A program made the position numbers and the translations under genes. Below are positions 1,981 through 43,291 of a stretch of DNA of 64,000 bases, piece by piece. The stretch comes from Parcubacteria group bacterium. Lineage in GTDB: Bacteria > Patescibacteriota > Minisyncoccia > Moranbacterales > UBA2206. The first letter of the stretch is position 1. Each line of letters opens with the position of its first letter. Location of the stretch: contig JBAZUU010000001.1 of the NCBI GenBank assembly GCA_041661275.1, positions 229,057 through 293,056 of the forward strand. Direction: 5' to 3'. Under the pieces are notes generated by a model. It was not told where the DNA came from. It made no database searches and saw only the letters and a list, made by a program, of their open reading frames with translations.

Positions 1981-4221
1981 ATGTCTAAAATCCTAGAAAA
2001 ACTAAATCCTTCCCAGCGCGAGGCGGTGGAGACGATTGATGGGCCGGTGCTTATCATTGCCGGAGCGGGTTCAGGGAAAACGCGGGCGCTCACTCATCGG
2101 GTGGCGTATTTGATTTGTGACAAAAATGTCAGTCCAAGGCGAATTTTGGCGGTGACATTCACAAACAAAGCTGCTCAAGAGATGAAGGAACGGATTGCAG
2201 AATTATTAGGTACTGATGACAACGATGGGAGTTCGACTCCCATTATGGGAGTCGAACTCCCAAGGAAAGAGATGCCGTTGGTGGGCACTTTTCATTCAAT
2301 CTGTGTGAGAATTTTGCGGCGGGAAATTGAGAAAGTGGGATATAAAAAATCATTTTCAATTCTCGATGCGCAGGATCAATTGGCACTTATGAAAAGGACG
2401 ATGAAGGAAATGCAAATTGATACCGATCAATTTAAACCACAAGCCATTTTGGGAGCAATTTCCAAAGCTAAAAACGAATTGATAGATGAAGCGGTTTTTG
2501 AAGAAGGCATCGGCGGATATTGGGAAGACGCAGTGTCGAAAGTTTATAAAACATATCAAAAAAAACTAAAAGACCAAAACGCTTTGGATTTTGACGATCT
2601 CATTATGCAAACAGTCAAAATTTTCAAGACATACCCAGAAATTTTGGCCAAATATCAGGAATTTTGGCGGTACATCATGGTGGATGAATATCAGGATACT
2701 AATCACGCGCAATATACTTTGGTAAAGCTGTTGTCTCAAAAGTATAAAAACATATGGGTTTGCGGTGATGACTGGCAAGGAATTTATATGTTTAGAGGCG
2801 CAGACATTCAAAACATACTCGACTTTGAAAAAGACTATTCAGACGCCAAAGTGATAAAACTAGAACAAAATTATCGTTCTACACAAAACATTCTGGACGC
2901 GGCTTACGGTGTTATTTCTAAAAACATTAATCGAAAAGATAAAAAAATATGGACCGACCAAGCGGGCGGGCATCTCATTACTTCATATGAAGCGGAAGAT
3001 GAAAGGGATGAGTCTGGTTTTATCGCCGAAGAAATCCGGAGAATAAGAAAAAAAGAAAACTATTCATTTTCCGATTTTGTGATTTTATATAGAACCAATG
3101 CTCAATCACGAACCATTGAAGAAGCGATGCTCAAAAATTCCCTGCCCTATCGAATTATTGGGGGCTTAAAATTCTATCAAAGAAAAGAAATAAAAGACGT
3201 CATTGCCTACCTTCGGCTTATTGAAAATTTTTATGACGAAGTTTCTTTGGAGCGCGTTATAAATGTTCCCAAAAAAGATATCGGCGAGATAACCTTGAAT
3301 AAATGGATAAAATTAGCCAGAGAAAATAATGTTAATCCGATAGGGTTTGGAGCTGGTAATTTAAAGATAGAGCCCTCTCCTGTCGCGAAGACGCGACATC
3401 CTCTCCCAGAGGGAGAGGAGGAAAGTAATGTGTTTTTAATTCCTTCCTCTAAAAAAGATAAAATTGCCAAGTTTTGTGAGTTTATAAAGAGGATGAATGA
3501 TGTAAAAAATAATATTCCACTGACTGATTTTATCCAAAAAGTCTTCATTGAATCCGGCTATGAAAAATTTTTGCTCGATGGAACGGAAGAAGGTGAAATG
3601 AGAAATGAGAACGTGCGCGAACTTTTGACGGTGGCTAAAAAATATGATGAATACGAAAGCGATGAAGGTTTGAAATTATTTTTGGAAGAAGTGGCACTTG
3701 TTTCTGATACGGACAATATCGATCAAAATAAAGACGCGGTGCATCTGATGACTTTGCACTCAGCCAAAGGACTGGAATTTAAGGTAGTTTTCATTGCCGG
3801 CCTCGAAGAGGGACTTCTGCCACATTCTCGAAGCATGATAGACGGTCGGGAGATGGAAGAGGAAAGAAGGTTGATGTACGTAGGAATAACTCGCGCCAAA
3901 GTCAAAGTATATTTATTATTTACCAGAGAAAGAAACATCTTTGGCTCAACGCAAGTCAATGCTCCGTCAAGATTTCTTGACGATATTCCGGAACACCTGC
4001 TCGAAGACTCAAATCCCAAATCTCAAATCCCAAATTCCAAACAAATCACAAATCCAAAATCACAAATTCAAAATTCTTTTCGAGATGGTGACAAAGTCAG
4101 TCATGAAATTTTTGGTGAGGGAAGAATAATCGCGACGCAAGGAGATATAATAACTGTGGCGTTTAAAAAAGCAGGATTGAAAAAACTAGCAGCGTCGATA
4201 GCGCCGTTAAGAAAAATTTAG
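1981..4221 (+). CDS. uvrD: UvrD/PcrA/Rep-family ATP-dependent DNA helicase
   Basis: Walker A (AGAGSGKTRALTHR) and the helicase motifs (VDEYQDTN, YRST, LMTLHSAKGLEF, VGITRAK) are present. The ORF also contains three repeat-derived in-frame insertions (see findings). Confidence 0.9.
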   Translation: MSKILEKLNPSQREAVETIDGPVLIIAGAGSGKTRALTHRVAYLICDKNVSPRRILAVTFTNKAAQEMKERIAELLGTDDNDGSSTPIMGVELPRKEMPLVGTFHSICVRILRREIEKVGYKKSFSILDAQDQLALMKRTMKEMQIDTDQFKPQAILGAISKAKNELIDEAVFEEGIGGYWEDAVSKVYKTYQKKLKDQNALDFDDLIMQTVKIFKTYPEILAKYQEFWRYIMVDEYQDTNHAQYTLVKLLSQKYKNIWVCGDDWQGIYMFRGADIQNILDFEKDYSDAKVIKLEQNYRSTQNILDAAYGVISKNINRKDKKIWTDQAGGHLITSYEAEDERDESGFIAEEIRRIRKKENYSFSDFVILYRTNAQSRTIEEAMLKNSLPYRIIGGLKFYQRKEIKDVIAYLRLIENFYDEVSLERVINVPKKDIGEITLNKWIKLARENNVNPIGFGAGNLKIEPSPVAKTRHPLPEGEEESNVFLIPSSKKDKIAKFCEFIKRMNDVKNNIPLTDFIQKVFIESGYEKFLLDGTEEGEMRNENVRELLTVAKKYDEYESDEGLKLFLEEVALVSDTDNIDQNKDAVHLMTLHSAKGLEFKVVFIAGLEEGLLPHSRSMIDGREMEEERRLMYVGITRAKVKVYLLFTRERNIFGSTQVNAPSRFLDDIPEHLLEDSNPKSQIPNSKQITNPKSQIQNSFRDGDKVSHEIFGEGRIIATQGDIITVAFKKAGLKKLAASIAPLRKI
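3372..3422 (+). repeat. CCCTCTCC/GGGAGAGGAGGA structured repeat, copy 1, in frame inside uvrD
   Basis: CCCTCTCCTGTC-GCGAAGACGC-GACATCCTCTCCCAGAGGGAGAGGAGGA. It encodes ...EPSPVAKTRHPLPEGEEE... within the helicase. Confidence 0.8.
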
Positions 4222-4343
4222 AATTTGAAATTTGAAATGAATTTTAAATGATTAAATTTAAAATTAAGACATTCAGAAATTTAAAATTGATTAAAAATTA
4301 AAAATTCTAAATTAAAAATTGAATAAGATAGTCTTAATAAAAC

Positions 4344-4375
4344 AAAAAAACCCAGGATTACTCCGGGCTTTTTTT
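4344..4375. terminator. putative bidirectional intrinsic terminator between convergent uvrD and the LysM/CHAP gene
   Basis: An A-run, an imperfect GC hairpin (CCCAGGATTACTCCGGG) and a T-run. Confidence 0.45.
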
Positions 4376-4385
4376 ACAATAAAAT

Positions 4386-5639
4386 CTAGTATACAAATCC
4401 CTTAACCGCTCTACTTCCTATCGGTATGGTTCTAGTGGATCTCTTGGCGAAGCCTGCATAGTTCATTTCGGATATAGTGAACGAAGATCCGCTGACTGAT
4501 TCTACGATAGCCACGTGTCCCCACCAGGATTCAGAAGAAACCATAATAGCTCCCGGTCTCGGAGTTTTCCCCGTGGAATATCCAGCCGCTTTGGCGTGAT
4601 AGAGCCATGTACCAGCATTTCCGCCCCAAGGAACGTAACGACGAGAGGCTACATACCAAGTGCAGTATCCGTATGGGAAGCTGTGGCCAGCGCCTGCTTT
4701 TCCGGAAAGCACTGATTTTCCGGCGGTGAATGAATCATATTGACGTGGAGCAATACCAATGGAAGAGCCACTGGAAGTAGAAGGAGTGGTAGCTTGTGGA
4801 ACTTCTTTCTGACCATCTGGAATAGTTATTTCTTCGCCCTCCTTTAGCTCTCCATTAGCCGGAAGTCCGTTAAAAGCAATAATTTTATCCTTGTCGGCTT
4901 TATATTCATTACTGACACTATCGATAGTATCACCCTTCTTTACGGTATATGTTAATCCGGAAACAGGGAGAATGAATATCTTATCTCCGGGCATAATGTC
5001 GTCAACATTATCCATTTCGTTTGCCCAGAGAATTGTGTTTACGCTAATCTTGTGGCTAGCGGCAATAGCGCTGACTGTATCGCCAGGCTGAACTTCATAG
5101 ATAACAACTCCGCCATCTTCTTCCGGGTCTTTTCGCACAGGACTCATTCCGGCGATAAGTGATTGTCCTTGAAGCATAAGCGGGCTTTCTTCTTCATCTT
5201 TTGATTCGGGATCGGGAGAGGTGCTGGCTTCAGCCAAAGGCGCCAAGGCTACATTAGTCTTTTTAGCGGATTTCAGAAACATTTTATCTTTTAGCGGATT
5301 ATCATAGTTTTCTTCTTGTCCAAAATAGCCAAATAAAAACCCGCTAGACTCACGGCCTGCGGTGAAATTGGTAGCGGAAACCAAAAGAGCGCAGGAAGCA
5401 ACAACGATAAACGCGCTGTAATTCCGGAATAGGTGCAGAACCTTGATGGTTCGCCGCTCTTTTATGAAACGCACTAATGCTTTTTGTATGATGTGAACCC
5501 GGGCAGCCAGGTTTTTGAGATTTTCGCGTCCTAATAAACTGATGGATAGAGTTTCGAGTAGTTTACTAATAACGATAAACCTTTCTTGTGTTTTGGGCTT
5601 TGGAATTGGCTGAAACCAGCTGTTTCCTTTGACCCTCAC
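4386..5639 (-). CDS. secreted/membrane-anchored peptidoglycan hydrolase with LysM repeats and a C-terminal CHAP domain
   Basis: N-terminal TM segment, two LysM-like segments (GDTVSAIAASHKISVNTILWANE; YTVKKGDTIDSVSNEY) and a CHAP-like C-terminus (YGYCTWYV...GHVAIV). Confidence 0.75.
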   Translation of the reverse strand: MRVKGNSWFQPIPKPKTQERFIVISKLLETLSISLLGRENLKNLAARVHIIQKALVRFIKERRTIKVLHLFRNYSAFIVVASCALLVSATNFTAGRESSGFLFGYFGQEENYDNPLKDKMFLKSAKKTNVALAPLAEASTSPDPESKDEEESPLMLQGQSLIAGMSPVRKDPEEDGGVVIYEVQPGDTVSAIAASHKISVNTILWANEMDNVDDIMPGDKIFILPVSGLTYTVKKGDTIDSVSNEYKADKDKIIAFNGLPANGELKEGEEITIPDGQKEVPQATTPSTSSGSSIGIAPRQYDSFTAGKSVLSGKAGAGHSFPYGYCTWYVASRRYVPWGGNAGTWLYHAKAAGYSTGKTPRPGAIMVSSESWWGHVAIVESVSGSSFTISEMNYAGFAKRSTRTIPIGSRAVKGFVY

Positions 5640-24227: not shown

Positions 24228-25802
24228 TTAAGAATCTTTATAAAGTTTCATCCCGGCAATAAATCCCAAAATAATCCACAACATCAGACTCCCCTGCTGG
24301 ATATCCCAGAAATAGTGGTCAAAGAGCATTATGAAGATGAAACCCAGGAGAATGCCTTTGAAATAGCGAAGAGAGATATCTATTGACAAATAGGTATTAT
24401 CGTTGCTTAATATAGGTTTAGCAGTAAATACCTTGTATAACCAGTATATAAATAGCCCAAGGCCTATAATCCCCAATTCACTCCAAATCAAAAGGAAGAC
24501 ATTATGAACCGGTTGGAACTGCCAGACTTCTAGTGGAACAAGGGCGTACCTTTGCATGTTCCACACAAATTGCCCTATTCCCACTCCCAGGACGGGATTG
24601 GCCAGAATTGTTCCACGTGAAACATTTAGGTAGGTCAGGCGCTCCTGAAAAGACTGCTCTAAATTTCGGTCCAAATCCTGGTTGGCCAAAAGGCCAAGGG
24701 ATATAATTATCAATATTGAGAGTATAGCAATGCGTAATCGAGAATTGTTCCACCCCGTAACGACTTCAGATGTTCCACGTGGAACATATATGTATAGCAA
24801 AGCTACGAATAATCCCAAAATGGCAGATTTAGAGAACGACAAAATTAGAGCGAAAACCTGTAAGGCTAAAACGGCGTATAGGATTACTTGGAGTAATCTA
24901 ACATATCCGACTAGGATTGTTCCACCCCGAAGGAATTCAAATTGTTCCACGCCCGCCTCGCGTCGACGAGTCTCCGCGAGTCGAGGCGGGTGGAACAATT
25001 TAAGATAAAGGAGGGTCAAGATGATTGATAGTAGTAAATATCCTCCCAGGATATTGGGATGAGGGAAGAGTCCATAGGCTCGGATATAACGTTCCCCGCC
25101 CGCCTCGCCGAAGACGGCAAGTCGAGGCAGGTGGAACACTATTTTGGCCACTCCGGGGATGTTTGGGGCTATCATACTTTCGCCCAAAACTGACAAGCCA
25201 ATTGAGCGCTGGATCAAAACCTGTATTATTCCTATAGCGGATTGGATAAAACCGACCAGTATGATAATAAGTGAGAAGATGTTCCACGTGGAACAATTTA
25301 GTGTTGTTGATGTCTTGTTGGATGTAGAATGTTCCACGTGGAACATTCGTGGTACGAAGCGGAATATTATAAACAGATATAAAAGATAAAACTCCAATAA
25401 CTTGGCAGATCTAAAAAAGGCAATGGTATGGTTGTCCGACCATAAAATTGACAAAAATGACCAAATGACCAAAAGGAGCGGAAGGGACAAATAAAGAGAT
25501 TTTAAAAATCGTCTTGACGTGGGGGATAACTTGTGTTTTAACCAAGTTATCCACAGTCTATACATTGACGAATAATCTTTTGTGTTGTATAATATAGTAA
25601 ACAACCATAAAACTATGGTTACCCCTAGTAAGATATCGGATATATAAACATATATCCCAGCGTACTCATTGAATGTTCCTTGAAATGGGAAGTATAATAT
25701 TACTTTTCTTAACGTTAAGGAAAAACTAAATAAAAACAAAAAGAAAAGCCAAATATCCGGTTGTATTTTTATGTTTTCCCAAATTTTTCTTATTTTTTCC
25801 AT
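24228..25802 (-). CDS. O-antigen ligase family (Wzy_C) polytopic membrane protein carrying multiple in-frame palindromic-repeat insertions
   Basis: The hallmark ILSFSKSAILGLFVALL segment and about 10 TM helices are present. The ORF stays open across roughly 600 bp of nested palindromes. Confidence 0.65.
   Translation of the reverse strand: MEKIRKIWENIKIQPDIWLFFLFLFSFSLTLRKVILYFPFQGTFNEYAGIYVYISDILLGVTIVLWLFTILYNTKDYSSMYRLWITWLKHKLSPTSRRFLKSLYLSLPLLLVIWSFLSILWSDNHTIAFFRSAKLLEFYLLYLFIIFRFVPRMFHVEHSTSNKTSTTLNCSTWNIFSLIIILVGFIQSAIGIIQVLIQRSIGLSVLGESMIAPNIPGVAKIVFHLPRLAVFGEAGGERYIRAYGLFPHPNILGGYLLLSIILTLLYLKLFHPPRLAETRRREAGVEQFEFLRGGTILVGYVRLLQVILYAVLALQVFALILSFSKSAILGLFVALLYIYVPRGTSEVVTGWNNSRLRIAILSILIIISLGLLANQDLDRNLEQSFQERLTYLNVSRGTILANPVLGVGIGQFVWNMQRYALVPLEVWQFQPVHNVFLLIWSELGIIGLGLFIYWLYKVFTAKPILSNDNTYLSIDISLRYFKGILLGFIFIMLFDHYFWDIQQGSLMLWIILGFIAGMKLYKDS
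24745..25347. repeat. nested MITE/RPE-like palindromic elements (TTGTTCCAC ... GTGGAACAA; core TGTTCCACGTGGAACA; GC-rich inner hairpins CGCCCGCCTCG...CGAGGCGGG)
   Basis: Copies at 24746-24786, 24916-24999, 25090-25139, 25279-25298 and 25328-25347, read directly. All lie inside the 24228-25802 ORF. Confidence 0.75.
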
Positions 25803-27113: not shown

Positions 27114-27186
27114 GGGCCATTAGCTCATCTGGTAGAGCGCATCCATGGCATGGATGAGGTGACCGGTTCGATCCCGGTATGGTCCA
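27114..27186 (+). tRNA. tRNA-Ala(GGC)
   Basis: GGGCCAT-TA-GCTCATCTGGTAGAGC-G-CATCC-ATGGCAT-GGATG...ATGGTCC-A, with the G3:U70 alanine identity pair. A TATAAT-like box lies about 12 nt upstream. Confidence 0.85.
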
Positions 27187-27228
27187 CGATTTTGTTAGTC
27201 AATTTGCTCAGCTTGTCCCCCACCACTT

Positions 27229-27302
<74 letters not shown>

Positions 27303-27323
27303 CCCAAGTGGTGGGGGATAAAG

Positions 27324-27378
27324 TTAGAGCGCTCCGTTCACATCGGAGAGGTCTCTGGTTCGAGTCCAGATACACCCA
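27324..27378 (+). ncRNA. tRNA-Val(CAC)-like 3' fragment (D-stem 3' strand through acceptor 3' strand) lacking a recognisable 5' half
   Basis: TTAGAGCG-CTCCG-TTCACAT-CGGAG-AGGTC-TCTGG-TTCGAGT-CCAGA-TACACCC-A. Relative to the upstream tRNA-Val it shows compensatory changes in the anticodon and T stems. Confidence 0.5.
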
Positions 27379-27394
27379 CTATAAAATTTATAAA

Positions 27395-27910
27395 ATGGAA
27401 AAAGTAATTTTAGTTGATGAGAAAGATAATTCTGTCGGCGAGGCGGAAAAATTAGAAGCACATAAGAAAGGACTTCTTCATCGGGCATTTTCTATTTTTA
27501 TTTTTAATTCAAAAGGAGAATTGTTATTACAAAAAAGGGCGAAAGCAAAGTATCATTCTGGAGGGTTGTGGTCTAATACTTGCTGTTCTCATCCAGCGCC
27601 GAAAAAAAATATTTTAGACGAAGCGCATAGGAGATTAAAAGAAGAGATGGGAATTGATTGTGAACTCAAAGAAATATATACATTTATATATAAGGCAAAA
27701 TTGAACAATGATCTGACGGAATATGAATATGATCATGTCTTTGCCGGAAGATACGATGAAAATCCAAAGCCTAATTCAGACGAAGTGGAGGATTGGAAAT
27801 GGGTCAATTTAGATTGGTTGGCCGAAGACATAAAAAATAATCCGCAAAATTATACATATTGGCTGAAGGATTGTTATAGGGATGTGGTGGAGAAAATAAG
27901 GGGCTTGTAG
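27395..27910 (+). CDS. idi: isopentenyl-diphosphate delta-isomerase, type 1 (Nudix)
   Basis: HRAFSIFIFNSKGELLLQKRAKAKYHSGGLWSNTCCSHP includes the NTCCSHP signature. The track start at 27308 lies inside the tRNA-like sequence, so the Met at 27395 is the likelier start. Confidence 0.85.
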   Translation: MEKVILVDEKDNSVGEAEKLEAHKKGLLHRAFSIFIFNSKGELLLQKRAKAKYHSGGLWSNTCCSHPAPKKNILDEAHRRLKEEMGIDCELKEIYTFIYKAKLNNDLTEYEYDHVFAGRYDENPKPNSDEVEDWKWVNLDWLAEDIKNNPQNYTYWLKDCYRDVVEKIRGL

Positions 27911-27973
27911 CTCATCTGGTAGAGCGCCGCATTCGCATTGCGGAGGTAAGGAGTTCGAGTCTCCTCAAGTCCA
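27901..27973 (+). tRNA. tRNA-Ala(CGC)
   Basis: GGGCTTG-TA-GCTCATCTGGTAGAGC-G-CCGCA-TTCGCAT-TGCGG...CAAGTCC-A with G3:U70. It overlaps the idi stop codon. Confidence 0.85.
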
Positions 27974-27987
27974 CAAAAAATAATAAG

Positions 27988-28539
27988 ATGAGTAAAAAAA
28001 TAATTTTCATTCCAGGGTGGTTAGATCAGGGAATAAACTTTCCCCAATATGAGACGCTGGAAATTTGGAAAGAGAATATAAAGCCAGATGTGAAATTAGA
28101 TTGCGATGTCATCATCGCTCATAGCCTCGGTTGTCATTTTGCTCTTTTCGATTGGGAAAACGCGAAAGATAAAAAAATAGTTTTTGTGAACCCACTAGTG
28201 AGCAACCGAAATGTTTTTTCCTGGTTCTGGCGGTGGGTGAAATTTAGAATGGGAGAGACGCAATCCGTTCAGAGGAAATATATAATAAGTCCAAGACGGG
28301 TAGCCAGAGGAGTTTTCTATTATTTCAAATTTCTCATGCCAGATGCATTTTCTCGATTGGATAATATGACCGATCATAATATGATTGTCATCAGAGGTAA
28401 AAAAGATTTATATTTTTGCGATGAAGAATCATGCGTATTGTTAAAAGAGAAAAAAATTGAAGTTATAGAATTGGATGAAGTAGGGCATCTTTGGAATAGC
28501 AAAATTGATGAAGAGATTAGAAGAATAATTGGTGAGTAA
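27988..28539 (+). CDS. alpha/beta-hydrolase-fold serine hydrolase (YdeN-like)
   Basis: Nucleophile elbow AHSLGC and a C-terminal Asp/His region. Confidence 0.55.
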   Translation: MSKKIIFIPGWLDQGINFPQYETLEIWKENIKPDVKLDCDVIIAHSLGCHFALFDWENAKDKKIVFVNPLVSNRNVFSWFWRWVKFRMGETQSVQRKYIISPRRVARGVFYYFKFLMPDAFSRLDNMTDHNMIVIRGKKDLYFCDEESCVLLKEKKIEVIELDEVGHLWNSKIDEEIRRIIGE

Positions 28540-28542
28540 TTA

Positions 28543-28615
28543 GCGCTTGTAGCTCAGTGGATAGAGCGCCGCCGTCCTAAGGCGGGCGTCGCAGGTTCGA
28601 TTCCTGCCAAGCGCA
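28543..28615 (+). tRNA. tRNA-Arg(CCT)
   Basis: GCGCTTG-TA-GCTCAGTGGATAGAGC-G-CCGCC-GTCCTAA-GGCGG...CAAGCGC-A. Confidence 0.8.
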
Positions 28616-28632
28616 CGGTAAAATAAAAAAAC

Positions 28633-28667: not shown

Positions 28668-29111
28668 TTATTTTATTTTCTTCAACTCTTTTCGCAACTG
28701 ATTGGCGTGGAGTTCGGTGTCTTTGTTTAATCTTTCCATAACTTTTTTCACAGTAATGTTGGTCGGAATGAACATATCAAAACACTTTTTTTCAAGCATT
28801 GATTGTTCAATGCGAAGAGCAATATTTATCGCATCTGCATGAGATAGTTTGGCTTTTTTAGCTTCCTCTATTTTTTCTTCCACATATCCGCTGACATAAC
28901 TCACTACACCCCTGGTGAACTTATTTTCTTTGAACAATTCTTTTTCCTTGGCAAAATTTTTGGCAATCTCTTTGGCGTGGATCACTTCTTCATCAGAAAT
29001 CTTTTTCCAGAAAGCCTTTTTGGCAGGAATCTTTTGAGAGTAGAGATTATATAAAATACTTATCTTCAATTCATTGTCTTCAAAAAGATCTATGATGGAG
29101 CGTTCTTTCAT
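28668..29111 (-). CDS. hypothetical protein (helical, possibly ferritin-like)
   Basis: 147 aa ORF. I have no confident family assignment. Confidence 0.45.
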   Translation of the reverse strand: MKERSIIDLFEDNELKISILYNLYSQKIPAKKAFWKKISDEEVIHAKEIAKNFAKEKELFKENKFTRGVVSYVSGYVEEKIEEAKKAKLSHADAINIALRIEQSMLEKKCFDMFIPTNITVKKVMERLNKDTELHANQLRKELKKIK

Positions 29112-29224
29112 GGTTTTAGTTTAGGTTATTACTACTGAAATTATAATAGGTTTTTGGGAAATAAAAAAGCCTCAGGTTGAGAGAAGTAATATGCAAGAAA
29201 TGCATAGTGCGATTAAAACGAATC

Positions 29225-29359
29225 TGTGCATTTTTTGCACATATTAAATAAGGATGCATTTGATTGTTCACAATGGACACATGTTCCATTTTGGAACATA
29301 TTAAAAAAATCAATTCTTTTCAAAAAGGGAATGGTTCAGTTATCCGGAAATTCCGGATA
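29225..29359. promoter_or_regulatory. three operator-like palindromes upstream of the GHKL/STAS operon
   Basis: TGTGCA-N5-TGCACA (29225-29241), ATGTTCCA-TTTT-TGGAACAT (29281-29299) and TATCCGGAA-A-TTCCGGATA (29339-29359). Confidence 0.5.
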
Positions 29360-29409
29360 GTTGGGTGATAATTTTTGACTGTAGAGGTATTATTTAGTAT
29401 AGTCTTACT

Positions 29410-29982
29410 ATGGATACCAACTTAGAAAAATTAGGATATCAGTGGATAACTGCGACATCCGACAGTGTCGACGTTGAGAGTGAGTATTATTGCCAGACGA
29501 AAGATATCTTTGAAGCAAGAAATGATAGGATGTCCGAGGAACTTATAATCAGGGGAATGGATGACGGGTTGGCTTATCTCATTTACGCGATCGCCGGAGA
29601 GTTGGGGAATAACTCTTTTGATCATAATATTGGCAATTGGCCCAATGTAATGGGAATTTTTTATGCTTTTGATTATGATGGAAAAAATGGGATTTTAGTA
29701 ATAGCGGACAGGGGAATCGGTGTCTTGGGTAGCCTAAAGAATGCCGTGTCAAATCTAAAAGATGATAAGGAAGCATTAGAGATAGCATTTACCAAGAAAA
29801 TATCTAGTCGTGTTTTGGAAAATAGGGGCAATGGATTAAAGTTTATCAAAAGCAATGTTTCAGAGAAGAATTTTACGCTGGAATTTATTTCCGGAAACGC
29901 TAAGGCGGATCTCAATCATGATATGAAGATAAGCGAAGCCGAGCAGCTCATTGCTGGGTGCCTGGCGATTTTAAAATTTTAA
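29410..29982 (+). CDS. GHKL-superfamily ATPase-domain protein (HATPase_c; anti-sigma/serine-kinase-like)
   Basis: N box ELGNNSFDH, G1 box ADRGIGV and G2 box NRGNGLKF. Confidence 0.7.
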   Translation: MDTNLEKLGYQWITATSDSVDVESEYYCQTKDIFEARNDRMSEELIIRGMDDGLAYLIYAIAGELGNNSFDHNIGNWPNVMGIFYAFDYDGKNGILVIADRGIGVLGSLKNAVSNLKDDKEALEIAFTKKISSRVLENRGNGLKFIKSNVSEKNFTLEFISGNAKADLNHDMKISEAEQLIAGCLAILKF

Positions 29983-29987
29983 AAATT

Positions 29988-30269
29988 ATGAAAATTGAAA
30001 TAATAAAATACGGCGACAAGCTTGTTTCTCGCCCATCAGGAAGAGAAGTGTTTTTGTCTATGGAGTCGAATATTCTAAAAGACTTATCAAATGATGAGCC
30101 TATAGAGATAGATTTCGCCGGAGTAAAGGCACTGACTCCTTCTTGGGCTGATGAAGTAATTACAAAAATCGCTCAGCGATTTAAAAAGGTGAGTTTAGTC
30201 AATACTGAAAATATGACCGTCCAGGCGACACTGAAAACCCTACGGGAATATTCGGATTTGAAGGTATAG
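29988..30269 (+). CDS. STAS-like (DUF4325-like) small protein, partner of the upstream GHKL ATPase
   Basis: DFAGVKALTPSWADEVITKIAQ resembles a STAS/DUF4325 core. I take the start at MKIEIIKYG, 6 nt after the upstream stop. Confidence 0.5.
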   Translation: MKIEIIKYGDKLVSRPSGREVFLSMESNILKDLSNDEPIEIDFAGVKALTPSWADEVITKIAQRFKKVSLVNTENMTVQATLKTLREYSDLKV

Positions 30270-30435
30270 AAAACATTGCAATGAATTTGCTGCGGCAAAA
30301 AATGTAGTGTTTTTTTATTTTGTTTTTTGGAAATAAAAAAGCCCGGCGCGGTGGCGTTGAGTAGAACAAAAAATAAAAAAAGCCTGGAATATTTTGATTT
30401 TCCAGGCGGTGGTTATTTTGTCTTTGTGAGTAGTA

Positions 30436-32888: not shown

Positions 32889-32942
32889 GCCCTCTCTGTC
32901 ACGATAAGAATCGTGACATCTCTCCCGGAGGGAGAGAAGGAT
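32889..32942 (+). repeat. CCCTCTCC structured repeat, copy 4, upstream of cca
   Basis: GCCCTCTCTGTC-ACGATAAGAATCGT-GACATCTCTCCCGGAGGGAGAGAAGGATA. A TATAAT box lies just upstream at about 32870. Confidence 0.8.
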
Positions 32943-42679: not shown

Positions 42680-42752
42680 GGATCCCTAGCTCAATGGCTA
42701 GAGCACTTCATTTACACTGAAGGGGTTATAGGTTCGAGTCCTATGGGATCCA
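42680..42752 (+). tRNA. tRNA-Val(TAC)
   Basis: GGATCCC-TA-GCTCAATGGCTAGAGC-A-CTTCA-TTTACAC-TGAAG...GGGATCC-A. Confidence 0.85.
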
Positions 42753-42775
42753 CACACATTGGAATTATATAGTTT

Positions 42776-42846: not shown

Positions 42847-43152
42847 GCCAGGTTAGCTCAGCGGTAGAGCGAAGGACTGAATTTCGGTCCGTCCGGCAGT
42901 AATGCCGGAATGAAAATTGGGTGAATTCGAGGAAACCTAAGTTGCCGATGAGGCAAAATGGCAATCTCGAGCCAAGTCTTGATGGGCATAGTTTTCAAGA
43001 AAGGTGTAGAGACTAGCGAGTGAGTCCCAACAATAATCTCGCATTAGCGCCCAATATCCTGATGAAGGATAATGAAATAGTCCAATCCTTGGGGAAACTC
43101 AAGAAGGAAAAGGAAAATCCTTGCGTGCCCAGTTCGACTCTGGGACCTGGCA
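42847..43152 (+). tRNA. tRNA-Phe(GAA) split by a group I intron in the anticodon loop
   Basis: Exon 1 is GCCAGGT-TA-GCTCAGCGGTAGAGC-G-AAGGA-CT (42847-42878). Exon 2 is GAAAA-TCCTT-GCGTG-CCCAG-TTCGACT-CTGGG-ACCTGGC-A (43113-43152). Spliced loop is CTGAAAA. Confidence 0.75.
42879..43112 (+). ncRNA. group I intron (234 nt), no ORF
   Basis: The internal guide GGTCC pairs with exon 1 GGACU through a U:G at the splice site, and the intron ends in G. Its core resembles the cyanobacterial tRNA-Leu intron as I recall it (GGAAACCTAA; CTCGAGCCAAGTC; GGTGTAGAGACTAGCG; TAGTCCAATCC). Confidence 0.75.
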
Positions 43153-43209: not shown

Positions 43210-43281
43210 GCGGGTGTAGTATAGTGGTTATTACGTCAGGTTGCCAATCTGAATACGGCGGTTCGATTCCGCTCACCCGCT
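43210..43281 (+). tRNA. tRNA-Gly(GCC)
   Basis: GCGGGTG...TCAGG-TTGCCAA-TCTGA...GGCGGTTCGATTCCGCT-CACCCGC-T. Confidence 0.85.
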
Positions 43282-43291
43282 CAAAATCACG

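Follow-up and report, generated by a model that had tools for sequence, protein, structure and literature searches.

A minimal GHKL kinase-like and DUF4325 STAS-like gene pair of Patescibacteria related to VapK/VapS and CapK/CapS

Two bacterial systems in which a GHKL kinase is paired with a STAS-type substrate, CapK/CapS and VapKSC, have been characterised (Chambers et al., EMBO J 2026; PMC13373217); the former controls adjacent immune operons and the latter is a toxin-antitoxin and anti-phage system. CapK is a helix-turn-helix (HTH)-STAS-GHKL kinase that single-stranded DNA (ssDNA) switches on and that phosphorylates Ser54 of CapS, a repressor composed of a STAS domain and a winged HTH. The phosphorylation alters dimer and DNA binding of CapS, and Asn218 of CapK is needed for kinase activity. 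For VapK, phosphomimetic and alanine mutants of VapS together with an AlphaFold 3 model indicate phosphorylation of VapS Ser48, which sets the VapC nuclease free; in that study a direct test of the phosphorylation was not possible. The internal STAS domain of CapK and VapK provides half of the ssDNA-sensing groove and holds the essential Trp68 or Phe54 (PMC13373217). Here we describe a two-gene locus from the metagenome-assembled genome (MAG) of a Parcubacteria-group bacterium (Patescibacteria, or candidate phyla radiation, CPR). The locus lies within 64,000 nucleotides of contig JBAZUU010000001.1 (assembly GCA_041661275.1), hereafter the window, and consists of open reading frame 1 (ORF1), encoding a minimal GHKL (Bergerat-fold) kinase-like protein, and ORF2, encoding a bare DUF4325 STAS-like protein.

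Very little has been published on DUF4325, and nothing in that literature joins partner-switching with Patescibacteria. A survey of PIN domains from 2017 describes a VapC group coupled to DUF4325 genes, and a table of Francisella prophage genes contains a 293-residue protein beside a DUF4325 protein (PMC7924643).

The gene pair and its closest characterised relatives

ORF1 (29410-29982, forward strand) encodes 190 residues identical to NCBI protein WCV59_01455, which lies on a 299-kb contig. ORF2 (29988-30269, forward strand) starts with ATG and encodes 93 residues; a 103-residue reading from a GTG codon was rejected because nearly all listed homologues have 93. The stop codon of ORF1 and the ATG of ORF2 are separated by 5 nucleotides. 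As judged by profile comparison, the closest characterised relatives of the pair are VapK/VapS and CapK/CapS, not RsbW/RsbV, and the pair is a minimal variant of the CapK/VapK-type kinase-substrate modules, without being a member of VapKSC or CapKS proper. We consider it rather likely from these relationships that ORF1-ORF2 works as a self-contained phospho-switch of two genes, belonging to the CapK/CapS and VapK/VapS type and being its most reduced known form.

ORF1 has no match in Pfam, NCBIfam, PADLOC or the PDB sequences, and a profile search of the PDB was also empty. Pfam HATPase_c (PF02518) and HATPase_c_2 (PF13581) stay below the gathering threshold, with nothing even at E-values up to 1. 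Among 97 representatives of the ORF1 family that share at most 50% identity, ten match HATPase_c (best E 4e-5) and ten match HATPase_c_2 (best E 6e-4), all weakly. Alignment of homologues places the N box, G63-E64-L-G-N-N68-S-F-D-H72-N (29599-29628), the G1 box, D100-R-G-I-G104 (29707-29721), and the G2 box, R139-G-N-G-L143 (29824-29838), in canonical order on the forward strand. The patterns GE.GNN..DH (residues 64-72), DRG.G (100-104) and RGNGL (139-143) are invariant in 44 homologues, the invariant residues being E64/N68/H72, D100/G102/G104 and G140/G142/L143, and the same ATP-site residues are at least 96% conserved in the 97 representatives. The AlphaFold model of ORF1 has a predicted local distance difference test score (pLDDT) of 91.2 and contains one low-confidence, disordered loop (residues 134-139) just before the G2 box, at the position of the ATP lid. 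The short N-terminus (residues 1-50) forms two helices, with no HTH and no internal STAS domain. All 50 listed Foldseek matches of the model in the PDB are GHKL proteins, at modest template-modelling (TM) scores of 0.45-0.48; they include CheA P4, Hsp90/TRAP1 and related chaperones, PDK, the sensor histidine kinase ZraS, topoisomerase VI-B and ParE. Model and alignment identify ORF1 as a GHKL-fold protein with intact ATP-binding motifs, and the conservation pattern indicates that the predicted ATP site is under strong purifying selection. Cys28 and Cys184 are both conserved within the close ORF1 subfamily; a redox switch formed by the two was dropped as a candidate, since Cys184 is often Thr or Val in the 97 representatives and the positions do not co-vary.

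ORF2 matches Pfam DUF4325 (PF14213) with 36.7 bits (E 3.6e-9, cut-off 23), as do nearly all of its homologues, and does not match Pfam STAS (PF01740). The AlphaFold model (pLDDT 90.6) has its secondary-structure elements in STAS order, and its best Foldseek matches, at E-values of 0.5-2, are RsbS (6jhk_B, TM score 0.64, root-mean-square deviation 2.7) and then the STAS domains of SLC26 proteins. The protein is a single domain with neither a DNA-binding domain nor an antitoxin tail, and mean column identity within its subfamily is 84%. Helix 2 spans residues 51-64. At its N-terminus lies the invariant P-S-W-A-D-E motif containing Ser52 (codon at 30141-30143, forward strand), the predicted phospho-acceptor; P-S-W is kept in 84 of 84 loci.

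The relationship to the two characterised systems is seen when the ORF1 and ORF2 family profiles are aligned by hhalign with the single CapK, CapS, VapK and VapS sequences from the supplements of PMC13373217. ORF1 residues 34-190 align with VapK 123-288, the whole kinase domain, at a probability of 86.7 (E 4.4e-6), and the alignment with CapK (probability 70.9, E 3.8e-5) places Asn68 on the catalytic Asn218. The probability for SpoIIAB, the sequence of which may be inexact, is 1.3. ORF2 aligns with VapS residues 1-63 (probability 67, E 5e-5), VapS being itself a strong DUF4325 member with 62.7 bits against PF14213, and in the alignment with CapS the Ser52-Trp of ORF2 falls on Ser54-Phe. SpoIIAA gave no significant match to ORF2.

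The pair resembles VapK/VapS in that a GHKL kinase gene is followed directly by a small DUF4325 STAS-like gene and that a conserved Ser marks the start of helix 2 in both substrates. Different from VapKSC, no VapC PIN gene is found among its neighbours, and ORF2 ends with the STAS domain, so that the tail of VapS that inhibits VapC (residues 94-116) is missing. VapKSC is also scattered among diverse bacteria near defence genes, whereas the ORF1-ORF2 family is Patescibacteria-wide. With CapK/CapS the family shares a predicted autoregulation of the kinase-substrate pair at its own promoter and, in many CPR orthologues, an N-terminal HTH on the kinase. In CapKS, however, the repressor is the substrate (STAS-winged HTH) and the HTH of CapK is dispensable, whereas the CPR form carries an HTH on the kinase only; the CapKS operators are wide or narrow palindromes, whereas the fused CPR forms have phased direct repeats. 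A CBASS, Bub or Thoeris operon is missing downstream of ORF1-ORF2, and the internal STAS domain of CapK is missing from ORF1, so the ssDNA groove of CapK/VapK cannot exist there in the same form.

More distant systems share parts of this design. In SpoIIAB/SpoIIAA and RsbW/RsbV, adjacent genes encode a small Ser kinase of the GHKL type and a STAS-fold protein of one domain, in which the acceptor Ser is at the N-terminus of helix 2. The sequence relation of SpoIIAB/SpoIIAA to ORF1/ORF2 is much weaker, however, and the HATPase_c_2 and STAS PF01740 matches, the nearby sigma factor and the PP2C phosphatase of RsbW/RsbV were not found at ORF1-ORF2. HipBA is also a two-gene autoregulated operon with a protein kinase, an HTH and a varying genomic location, but the HipA kinase is eukaryotic-like and unrelated to GHKL, and the HTH of HipBA is on the antitoxin. 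SiaC of Pseudomonas aeruginosa belongs to the DUF1987 family. SiaB/SiaC, compared by description, joins a kinase to a STAS-like protein of a domain-of-unknown-function family with an output that is not a sigma factor; in this system, in contrast, the substrate is phosphorylated on Thr, and the operon adds the phosphatase SiaA and the target SiaD (PMC7647112, PMC8457831). Among phage protein families, ORF1 matches phrog_3364 (E 1e-13). In the 441-position profile of phrog_5816, ORF1 aligns at positions 161-277 and ORF2 at 368-419, suggesting that this family is a natural kinase-STAS fusion in phage genomes.

An earlier note on this DNA, written from the sequence alone, had seen in the pair the composition of RsbW/RsbV-like partner-switching modules. 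The kinase/antagonist type, GHKL with a STAS-like partner, is upheld by the present data, but a relation to RsbW/RsbV proper is not, with VapK at 86.7 and SpoIIAB at 1.3. Both ORFs sit where the note had placed them and are adjacent, although the gap is 5 rather than 6 nucleotides. Its assignment of the N, G1 and G2 boxes agrees with the 44-homologue alignment, the 97 representatives and the AlphaFold and Foldseek results, and the roughly 93-residue STAS/DUF4325-like protein that it described does match the DUF4325 profile. The other profiles that it had suggested, HATPase_c and HATPase_c_2 for ORF1 and STAS PF01740 for ORF2, returned nothing. Its remark that no sigma factor is adjacent also holds: none lies within about 3 kb of the pair in a Pfam scan of the neighbours.

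In the proposed mechanism, the operon would be transcribed from its own sigma-70 promoter and ORF2 would be translationally coupled to ORF1 across the 5-nucleotide gap. ORF1, the fold and motifs of which are evident from model and alignment, would bind ATP through its intact Bergerat site and, by homology, phosphorylate ORF2 on Ser52, which caps helix 2 of the STAS-like fold at its N-terminus. This phosphorylation would change the binding partner of ORF2, as in CapS (dimer and DNA) and in phosphomimetic VapS (VapC).

Distribution, DNA-binding fusions and flanking repeats

A word-indexed search returned 712 homologues of ORF1, and a profile search of 1.84 billion representatives returned 732 clusters; for ORF2 there are 492 homologues, almost all of which are exactly 93 residues long. 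The pair is present at no fewer than 504 loci in a scan with one genome per species, covering Moran-, Falkow-, Nealson-, Azam-, Staskawicz-, Magasanik-, Collier-, Ames-, Gottesman-, Berkel-, Peregrini-, Peri- and Gracilibacteria as well as Saccharibacteria. The few records with proteobacterial names are short contigs or automatically labelled MAGs, and their labels are unconfirmed. The kinase gene precedes the DUF4325 gene on the same strand in 89 of 89 fetched loci, mostly at a distance of -11 to +20 nucleotides, and the 80 retrieved genome loci come from 80 different MAGs. In one protein (P0243, 320 residues; members P0391 and P0392; three contigs), a cytidylyltransferase-like domain is fused N-terminal to the kinase domain, which may represent either a genuine fusion or two genes merged in gene calling.

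Across 84 loci there is no conserved third gene. The best candidates reach at most nine of the 84, and AAA_14/DUF4143 (nine loci), TrmB (six), the CCA-adding enzyme (five) and Fic (five) were rejected as obligate partners; TrmB-like winged-HTH genes are a weak lead for the HTH-less lineages. An RpoD-like gene occurs in only three of the 84 loci, and neither sigma factors nor PP2C phosphatases are recurrent neighbours. The neighbourhood changes with nearly every locus (rpoBC, aspS, recA-ndk, hydrogenase maturation genes, polA) and is made up mostly of housekeeping genes. The pair had been suspected of being defence-associated, with co-occurrence in defence islands as the proposed check. The homology link to defence regulators supports part of this view, but the island context is not supported: the mostly housekeeping neighbours vary by locus. 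The site itself, however, is variable among relatives.

Many relatives of ORF1 are 240-260 residues long and possess an N-terminal DNA-binding domain. A MerR/HTH_17 domain is found on the kinase in 30 of the 97 representatives, winged HTH domains (MarR, HTH_24, HTH_11) in several and XRE domains in a few. That several HTH classes have been fused independently at one position strongly suggests that the predicted kinase works on DNA. Upstream of the HTH_17-fused genes (L060-L089) are two to four direct repeats with the consensus TGCATAGATTT, which lie on one strand, are spaced 10, 20 or 21 nucleotides apart and overlap the promoter down to 13-19 nucleotides before the ATG. Two tests that are independent of the derived matrix agree on these repeats. 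Phased 9-mer self-repeats are present in 22 of 23 fused loci (169 observed versus 2.5 in shuffles), and 3.6 kb of upstream regions contain exact TGYATAGRTT 26 times, versus once for the remaining 159 kb of locus sequence; it is absent upstream of the HTH-less orthologues and from the window. Two loci with fusions of related winged HTH domains (L056, L086) share a different repeat, TATAGTTTA/TAAACTATA, and the type of DNA-binding domain therefore co-varies with the repeat sequence. The HTH-fused form is probably an autoregulated, DNA-tethered kinase acting through TGCATAGATTT sites, and we infer that the lineage of the window has lost both the HTH and the TGCATAGATTT repeats.

The candidate promoter of the pair is of the sigma-70 type, TTGACT-N17-TATAGT (29375-29403, forward strand). 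In place of the repeats, HTH-less loci have the pattern TTGACx-N17-TAnnnT ending exactly 7 nucleotides before the ATG, as found in the window, in 13 of 60 orthologous loci and in L091, a syntenic HTH-less locus of a relative. Because the -10 hexamer ends 7 nucleotides before the ATG, the kinase-gene mRNA is predicted to be leaderless in these Parcubacteria.

In its genomic behaviour the unit resembles a discrete cassette: its position changes, and it often lies between copies of the terminator of the gene upstream. In the window it is flanked by a direct repeat, GTTTTTGGGAAATAAAAAAGCC, with an upstream copy at 29150-29171 and a downstream copy at 30322-30343 (both forward strand, 21 of 22 bases identical), and the two copies are found at the same places in L091. 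Exact flanking direct repeats of at least 12 nucleotides occur in 12 of 76 loci versus 0.2 expected from mismatched loci, and in 18 of 73 loci, versus 0.7 expected, local flank similarity is above the null's 99th percentile. These repeats are locus-specific, 22-141 nucleotides long and 81-99% identical, and usually consist of the upstream gene's terminator or its 3' end. In many cases the T-tract of the upstream copy directly adjoins the operon's -35 element. In one locus (L065), a 94-nucleotide repeat has an exact 44-nucleotide core, and the differences upstream of the core look synonymous, as at attL/attR. No recombinase is encoded in the two-gene unit. Another relative (L092) has a Fic/RhuM gene and a 258-residue gene (3848-4867) between the same flanks where the window and L091 have the pair, and this site beside the tRNA cluster appears to be a variable hotspot. 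Consistent with mild incongruence, the GHKL protein of L091 is 54% identical to ORF1, versus 76-80% for the products of the flanking genes. A phage origin was rejected, as the viral collections yielded one match in 2.9 million IMG/VR contigs and none in 50,697 INPHARED phage genomes.

Upstream palindromes and the surrounding window

The intergenic region upstream of ORF1 (29112-29409, 298 nucleotides) is shared with a divergent gene of 147 residues (28668-29111, reverse strand), which is syntenic in L091 and L092 and some homologues of which are labelled 'rubrerythrin' by JGI. Three palindromic elements, centred at about -60, -120 and -177, precede the core promoter. The most distal is an imperfect inverted repeat with 19-nucleotide arms that are 84% complementary (29189-29245), including TGTGCA-N5-TGCACA. 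The second is the perfect palindrome ATGTTCCA-TTT-TGGAACAT (29281-29299), and the third, also perfect, is TATCCGGAA-A-TTCCGGATA (29341-29359), centred about 60 nucleotides upstream of the predicted transcription start. The 298 nucleotides thus hold two perfect palindromes whose arms reach at least 8 nucleotides, versus 0.08 expected (P=0.005). The third element is contained in a 15-pair hairpin (29334-29366; -22.3 kcal/mol, z -2.6); it is unlikely to be transcribed with the operon because it lies upstream of the conserved promoter, and it was rejected as a riboswitch or known RNA for want of an Rfam match. The palindromes were likewise rejected as degenerate TGCATAGATTT operators (best matrix score 8.2 versus a threshold of 9, no phased sites). 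The 8-mer ATGTTCCA, present in 10 copies in the window versus 2.4 expected, is also the half-site of the TGTTCCA-CG-TGGAACA palindromes inside the ORF at 24228-25802, a Wzy_C-family gene. The spacers are unlike, TTT in the former and CG in the latter.

All three palindromes fall within a segment of about 195 nucleotides (29176-29369) that is absent from L091. There the order is Wzy_C, NMO, NUDIX and rubrerythrin-like genes, then divergently the kinase, DUF4325, TrmB-like and CCA-adding enzyme genes; the intergenic region measures 104 nucleotides, with the TTTTGGGAAATAAAAAAGCC element and the promoter kept and the segment gone. None of the palindromes is found upstream of any orthologue examined, the upstream regions of which (46-127 nucleotides) hold only the terminator hairpins of the preceding gene. 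The segment was rejected as a multicopy element, having no second copy in the window and no match in the phage collection. By comparison with the orthologues, the palindromes are part of a local insert of about 195 nucleotides; as operators of the kinase-STAS unit they are not conserved. They could act in the regulation of the local gene pair or stem from the palindromic element family of the Wzy_C gene, and the divergent 147-residue gene is a possible alternative target.

It is possible, though doubtful, that the palindromes serve as operators for local regulators of ORF1-ORF2, of the divergent rubrerythrin-like gene or of both, with a binder of ATGTTCCA shared with the Wzy_C-family gene. The excess of perfect palindromes, their positions upstream of the core promoter and the enrichment of the ATGTTCCA family in the window are in line with such a role, but the segment that carries them is missing from the orthologue L091, which keeps the promoter, and none of them is found upstream of other orthologues. 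One dimeric binder would not fit both the TTT and the CG spacer, and the Wzy_C copies lie in a coding region beside long GC-rich hairpins, which looks more like a spreading palindromic element than an operator set. The earlier note had recognised the three palindromes, which are real, although the spacer it gave as 4 nucleotides is 3; the half-site it saw in common with the O-antigen-ligase-family gene is indeed ATGTTCCA, with differing spacers. The complex control that it drew from the palindromes is not borne out, given their absence from the orthologous loci, an outcome that the note itself had named as refuting.

The Wzy_C-family ORF (24228-25802, reverse strand) encodes 524 residues and is open despite the GTTCCAC...GTGGAAC palindrome family inside it. 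It contains three perfect TGTTCCACGTGGAACA copies (24771, 25280 and 25330) and two long GC-rich hairpins (about 24941-24998 and 25089-25138); the orthologue in L091 has 382 residues, which fits in-frame palindromic insertions. A separate hairpin, TC(C)TCTCCC-N3-GGGAGAG(G)A, occurs nine times in the 64 kb (3399, 22421, 22529, 32919, 34591, 40554, 42802, 46869 and 46995). At 32897 and 46888 it adjoins the palindrome TGTCACGAT-N4-ATCGTGACA, in opposite relative orders, and the set looks like a terminator or REP-like repeat family.

Near the pair are also a four-tRNA cluster (27114-28616), a NUDIX-like gene, a hydrolase-like gene, a double winged-HTH protein gene and a CCA-adding enzyme gene, and downstream of ORF2 three unconserved hypothetical genes lie on the opposite strand. 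The Pfam scan detected no PP2C phosphatase within about 3 kb of the pair in the window. Directly 3' of tRNA-Val (27228-27306), a weak tRNA-like match (27314-27378, forward strand; Rfam 34.9 bits), not called by ARAGORN, overlaps the start of a long GTG-started reading of the NUDIX ORF and may be a tRNA remnant. Farther away, a full-length group I intron (42869-43104, forward strand; Rfam RF00028, 87.4 bits) is located between tRNA-Val(tac) (42680-42753) and tRNA-Gly (43210-43282).

Alternative readings and implications

Several observations speak against the phospho-switch reading. The profile-profile probabilities are moderate (67-87%), each being obtained against one sequence, and the structural match of ORF2 to STAS proteins is statistically weak. 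VapS has S-P-F where ORF2 has P-S-W, so the acceptor is offset by one relative to the aromatic residue. Without the internal STAS domain, activation of ORF1 must differ from that of CapK/VapK. No conserved third gene nearby points to a target of ORF2. A phosphatase was not found either, in a window of 64 kb that was not scanned for one systematically.

The main rival for the function shares the kinase-substrate biochemistry and differs only in biological role. In this rival, which we hold to be unlikely but well worth weighing, the pair would be an accessory module of a mobile kind, toxin-antitoxin-like or of defence type, similar to a VapKSC that lost or never possessed the VapC nuclease, in which the kinase or an unlinked host protein is the growth-arresting effector, the DUF4325 protein neutralises it and the module spreads horizontally in Patescibacteria. 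Relatives in phage protein families and in the Francisella prophage (PMC7924643), a different neighbourhood in almost every lineage, the locus-specific flanking repeats (18 of 73 loci versus 0.7 expected), the replacement of the pair by Fic/RhuM in L092 and the mild incongruence in L091 (54% versus 76-80%) would all suit such an element, and HTH swapping with promoter-overlapping operators is typical of autoregulated toxin-antitoxin operons. However, there is no toxin-like third gene and no C-terminal tail of the VapS type, the pair is nearly absent from viral collections, and the 80 retrieved loci are each from a different MAG (copies per genome were not counted). The 84% mean column identity of ORF2 in its subfamily, the strong purifying selection on the ATP site and the mostly housekeeping neighbours also argue against it. 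The blank PADLOC result was rejected as counter-evidence, as VapS and VapK are also without a meaningful match in PADLOC v2. A further reading, which we regard as rather improbable, carries the cassette-like behaviour further: a Patescibacteria-wide mobile phospho-switch cassette of about 0.95 kb (promoter, kinase gene and STAS-like gene), lacking a recombinase, would insert behind terminators or 3' ends and make or carry the 22-141-nucleotide repeats, and a conserved host protein would be the target of the bare STAS protein.

A classical partner switch of the RsbW/RsbV or SpoIIAB/SpoIIAA kind, with ORF1 as the anti-sigma factor and unphosphorylated ORF2 freeing a sigma factor encoded elsewhere, is very unlikely. 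The size of ORF1 and its E-x3-N-x3-H, DxGxG and GxGL pattern do resemble SpoIIAB, with the N and G1 boxes in register with the SpoIIAB sequence used; the best structural matches of ORF2 are STAS proteins of the RsbS type, and JGI calls one homologue an 'anti-sigma regulatory factor (Ser/Thr protein kinase)'. The hhalign result (SpoIIAB 1.3 versus VapK 86.7) opposes this assignment, as do the missing HATPase_c_2 and STAS PF01740 matches and the lack of a recurrent sigma factor or PP2C neighbour in the 84 loci (RpoD-like in only three); the kinase-HTH fusions suggest that the tether is DNA, not a sigma factor. STAS domains can also control ATPases without undergoing phosphorylation, MlaB and MlaF being an example. 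A scheme free of phosphotransfer, in which ORF2 is an allosteric partner modulating the ATPase cycle of ORF1 or ORF1 is an ATP-dependent clamp or chaperone-like GHKL protein, would accommodate this general behaviour of STAS domains and the Hsp90/TRAP1 and topoisomerase VI-B ATPases that stand beside kinases among the top Foldseek matches. It is highly improbable, however: ORF1 lacks the transducer or second domain used by GHKL ATPases and is specifically homologous to proven kinases, and ORF2 has an invariant Ser exactly where CapS and VapS carry theirs.

CapK/VapK-type kinase-substrate modules are already described; what is new here is a minimal, CPR-wide variant. The CapK/VapK family is thereby extended beyond defence loci to a two-gene form without an effector, which raises the question of the target of the bare STAS protein. 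For annotation, ORF1 defines a GHKL subfamily that is now missed by Pfam. Both proteins have so far been annotated as hypothetical or DUF4325, and the link to CapK/CapS and VapK/VapS gives predictions for them: Ser52 as the phospho-acceptor, Asn68 as the catalytic residue and the TGCATAGATTT repeats as the operator of the HTH-fused forms. The flanking repeats in a quarter of loci suggest movement of a small cassette without an element-encoded recombinase, which would be of wider interest if confirmed. Should the mobile-cassette reading be true, it would imply an undescribed mode of insertion or capture and a host target, for example in transcription, translation or DNA repair; the unit would then be a stress or DNA-damage switch for reduced genomes, ancestral to or derived from the CapKS/VapKSC immune regulators. 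Patescibacteria have very small genomes and few recognisable regulators. The pair is conserved across Parcubacteria, Microgenomates, Saccharibacteria, Peregrinibacteria and Gracilibacteria, and it therefore likely controls something that these cells need.

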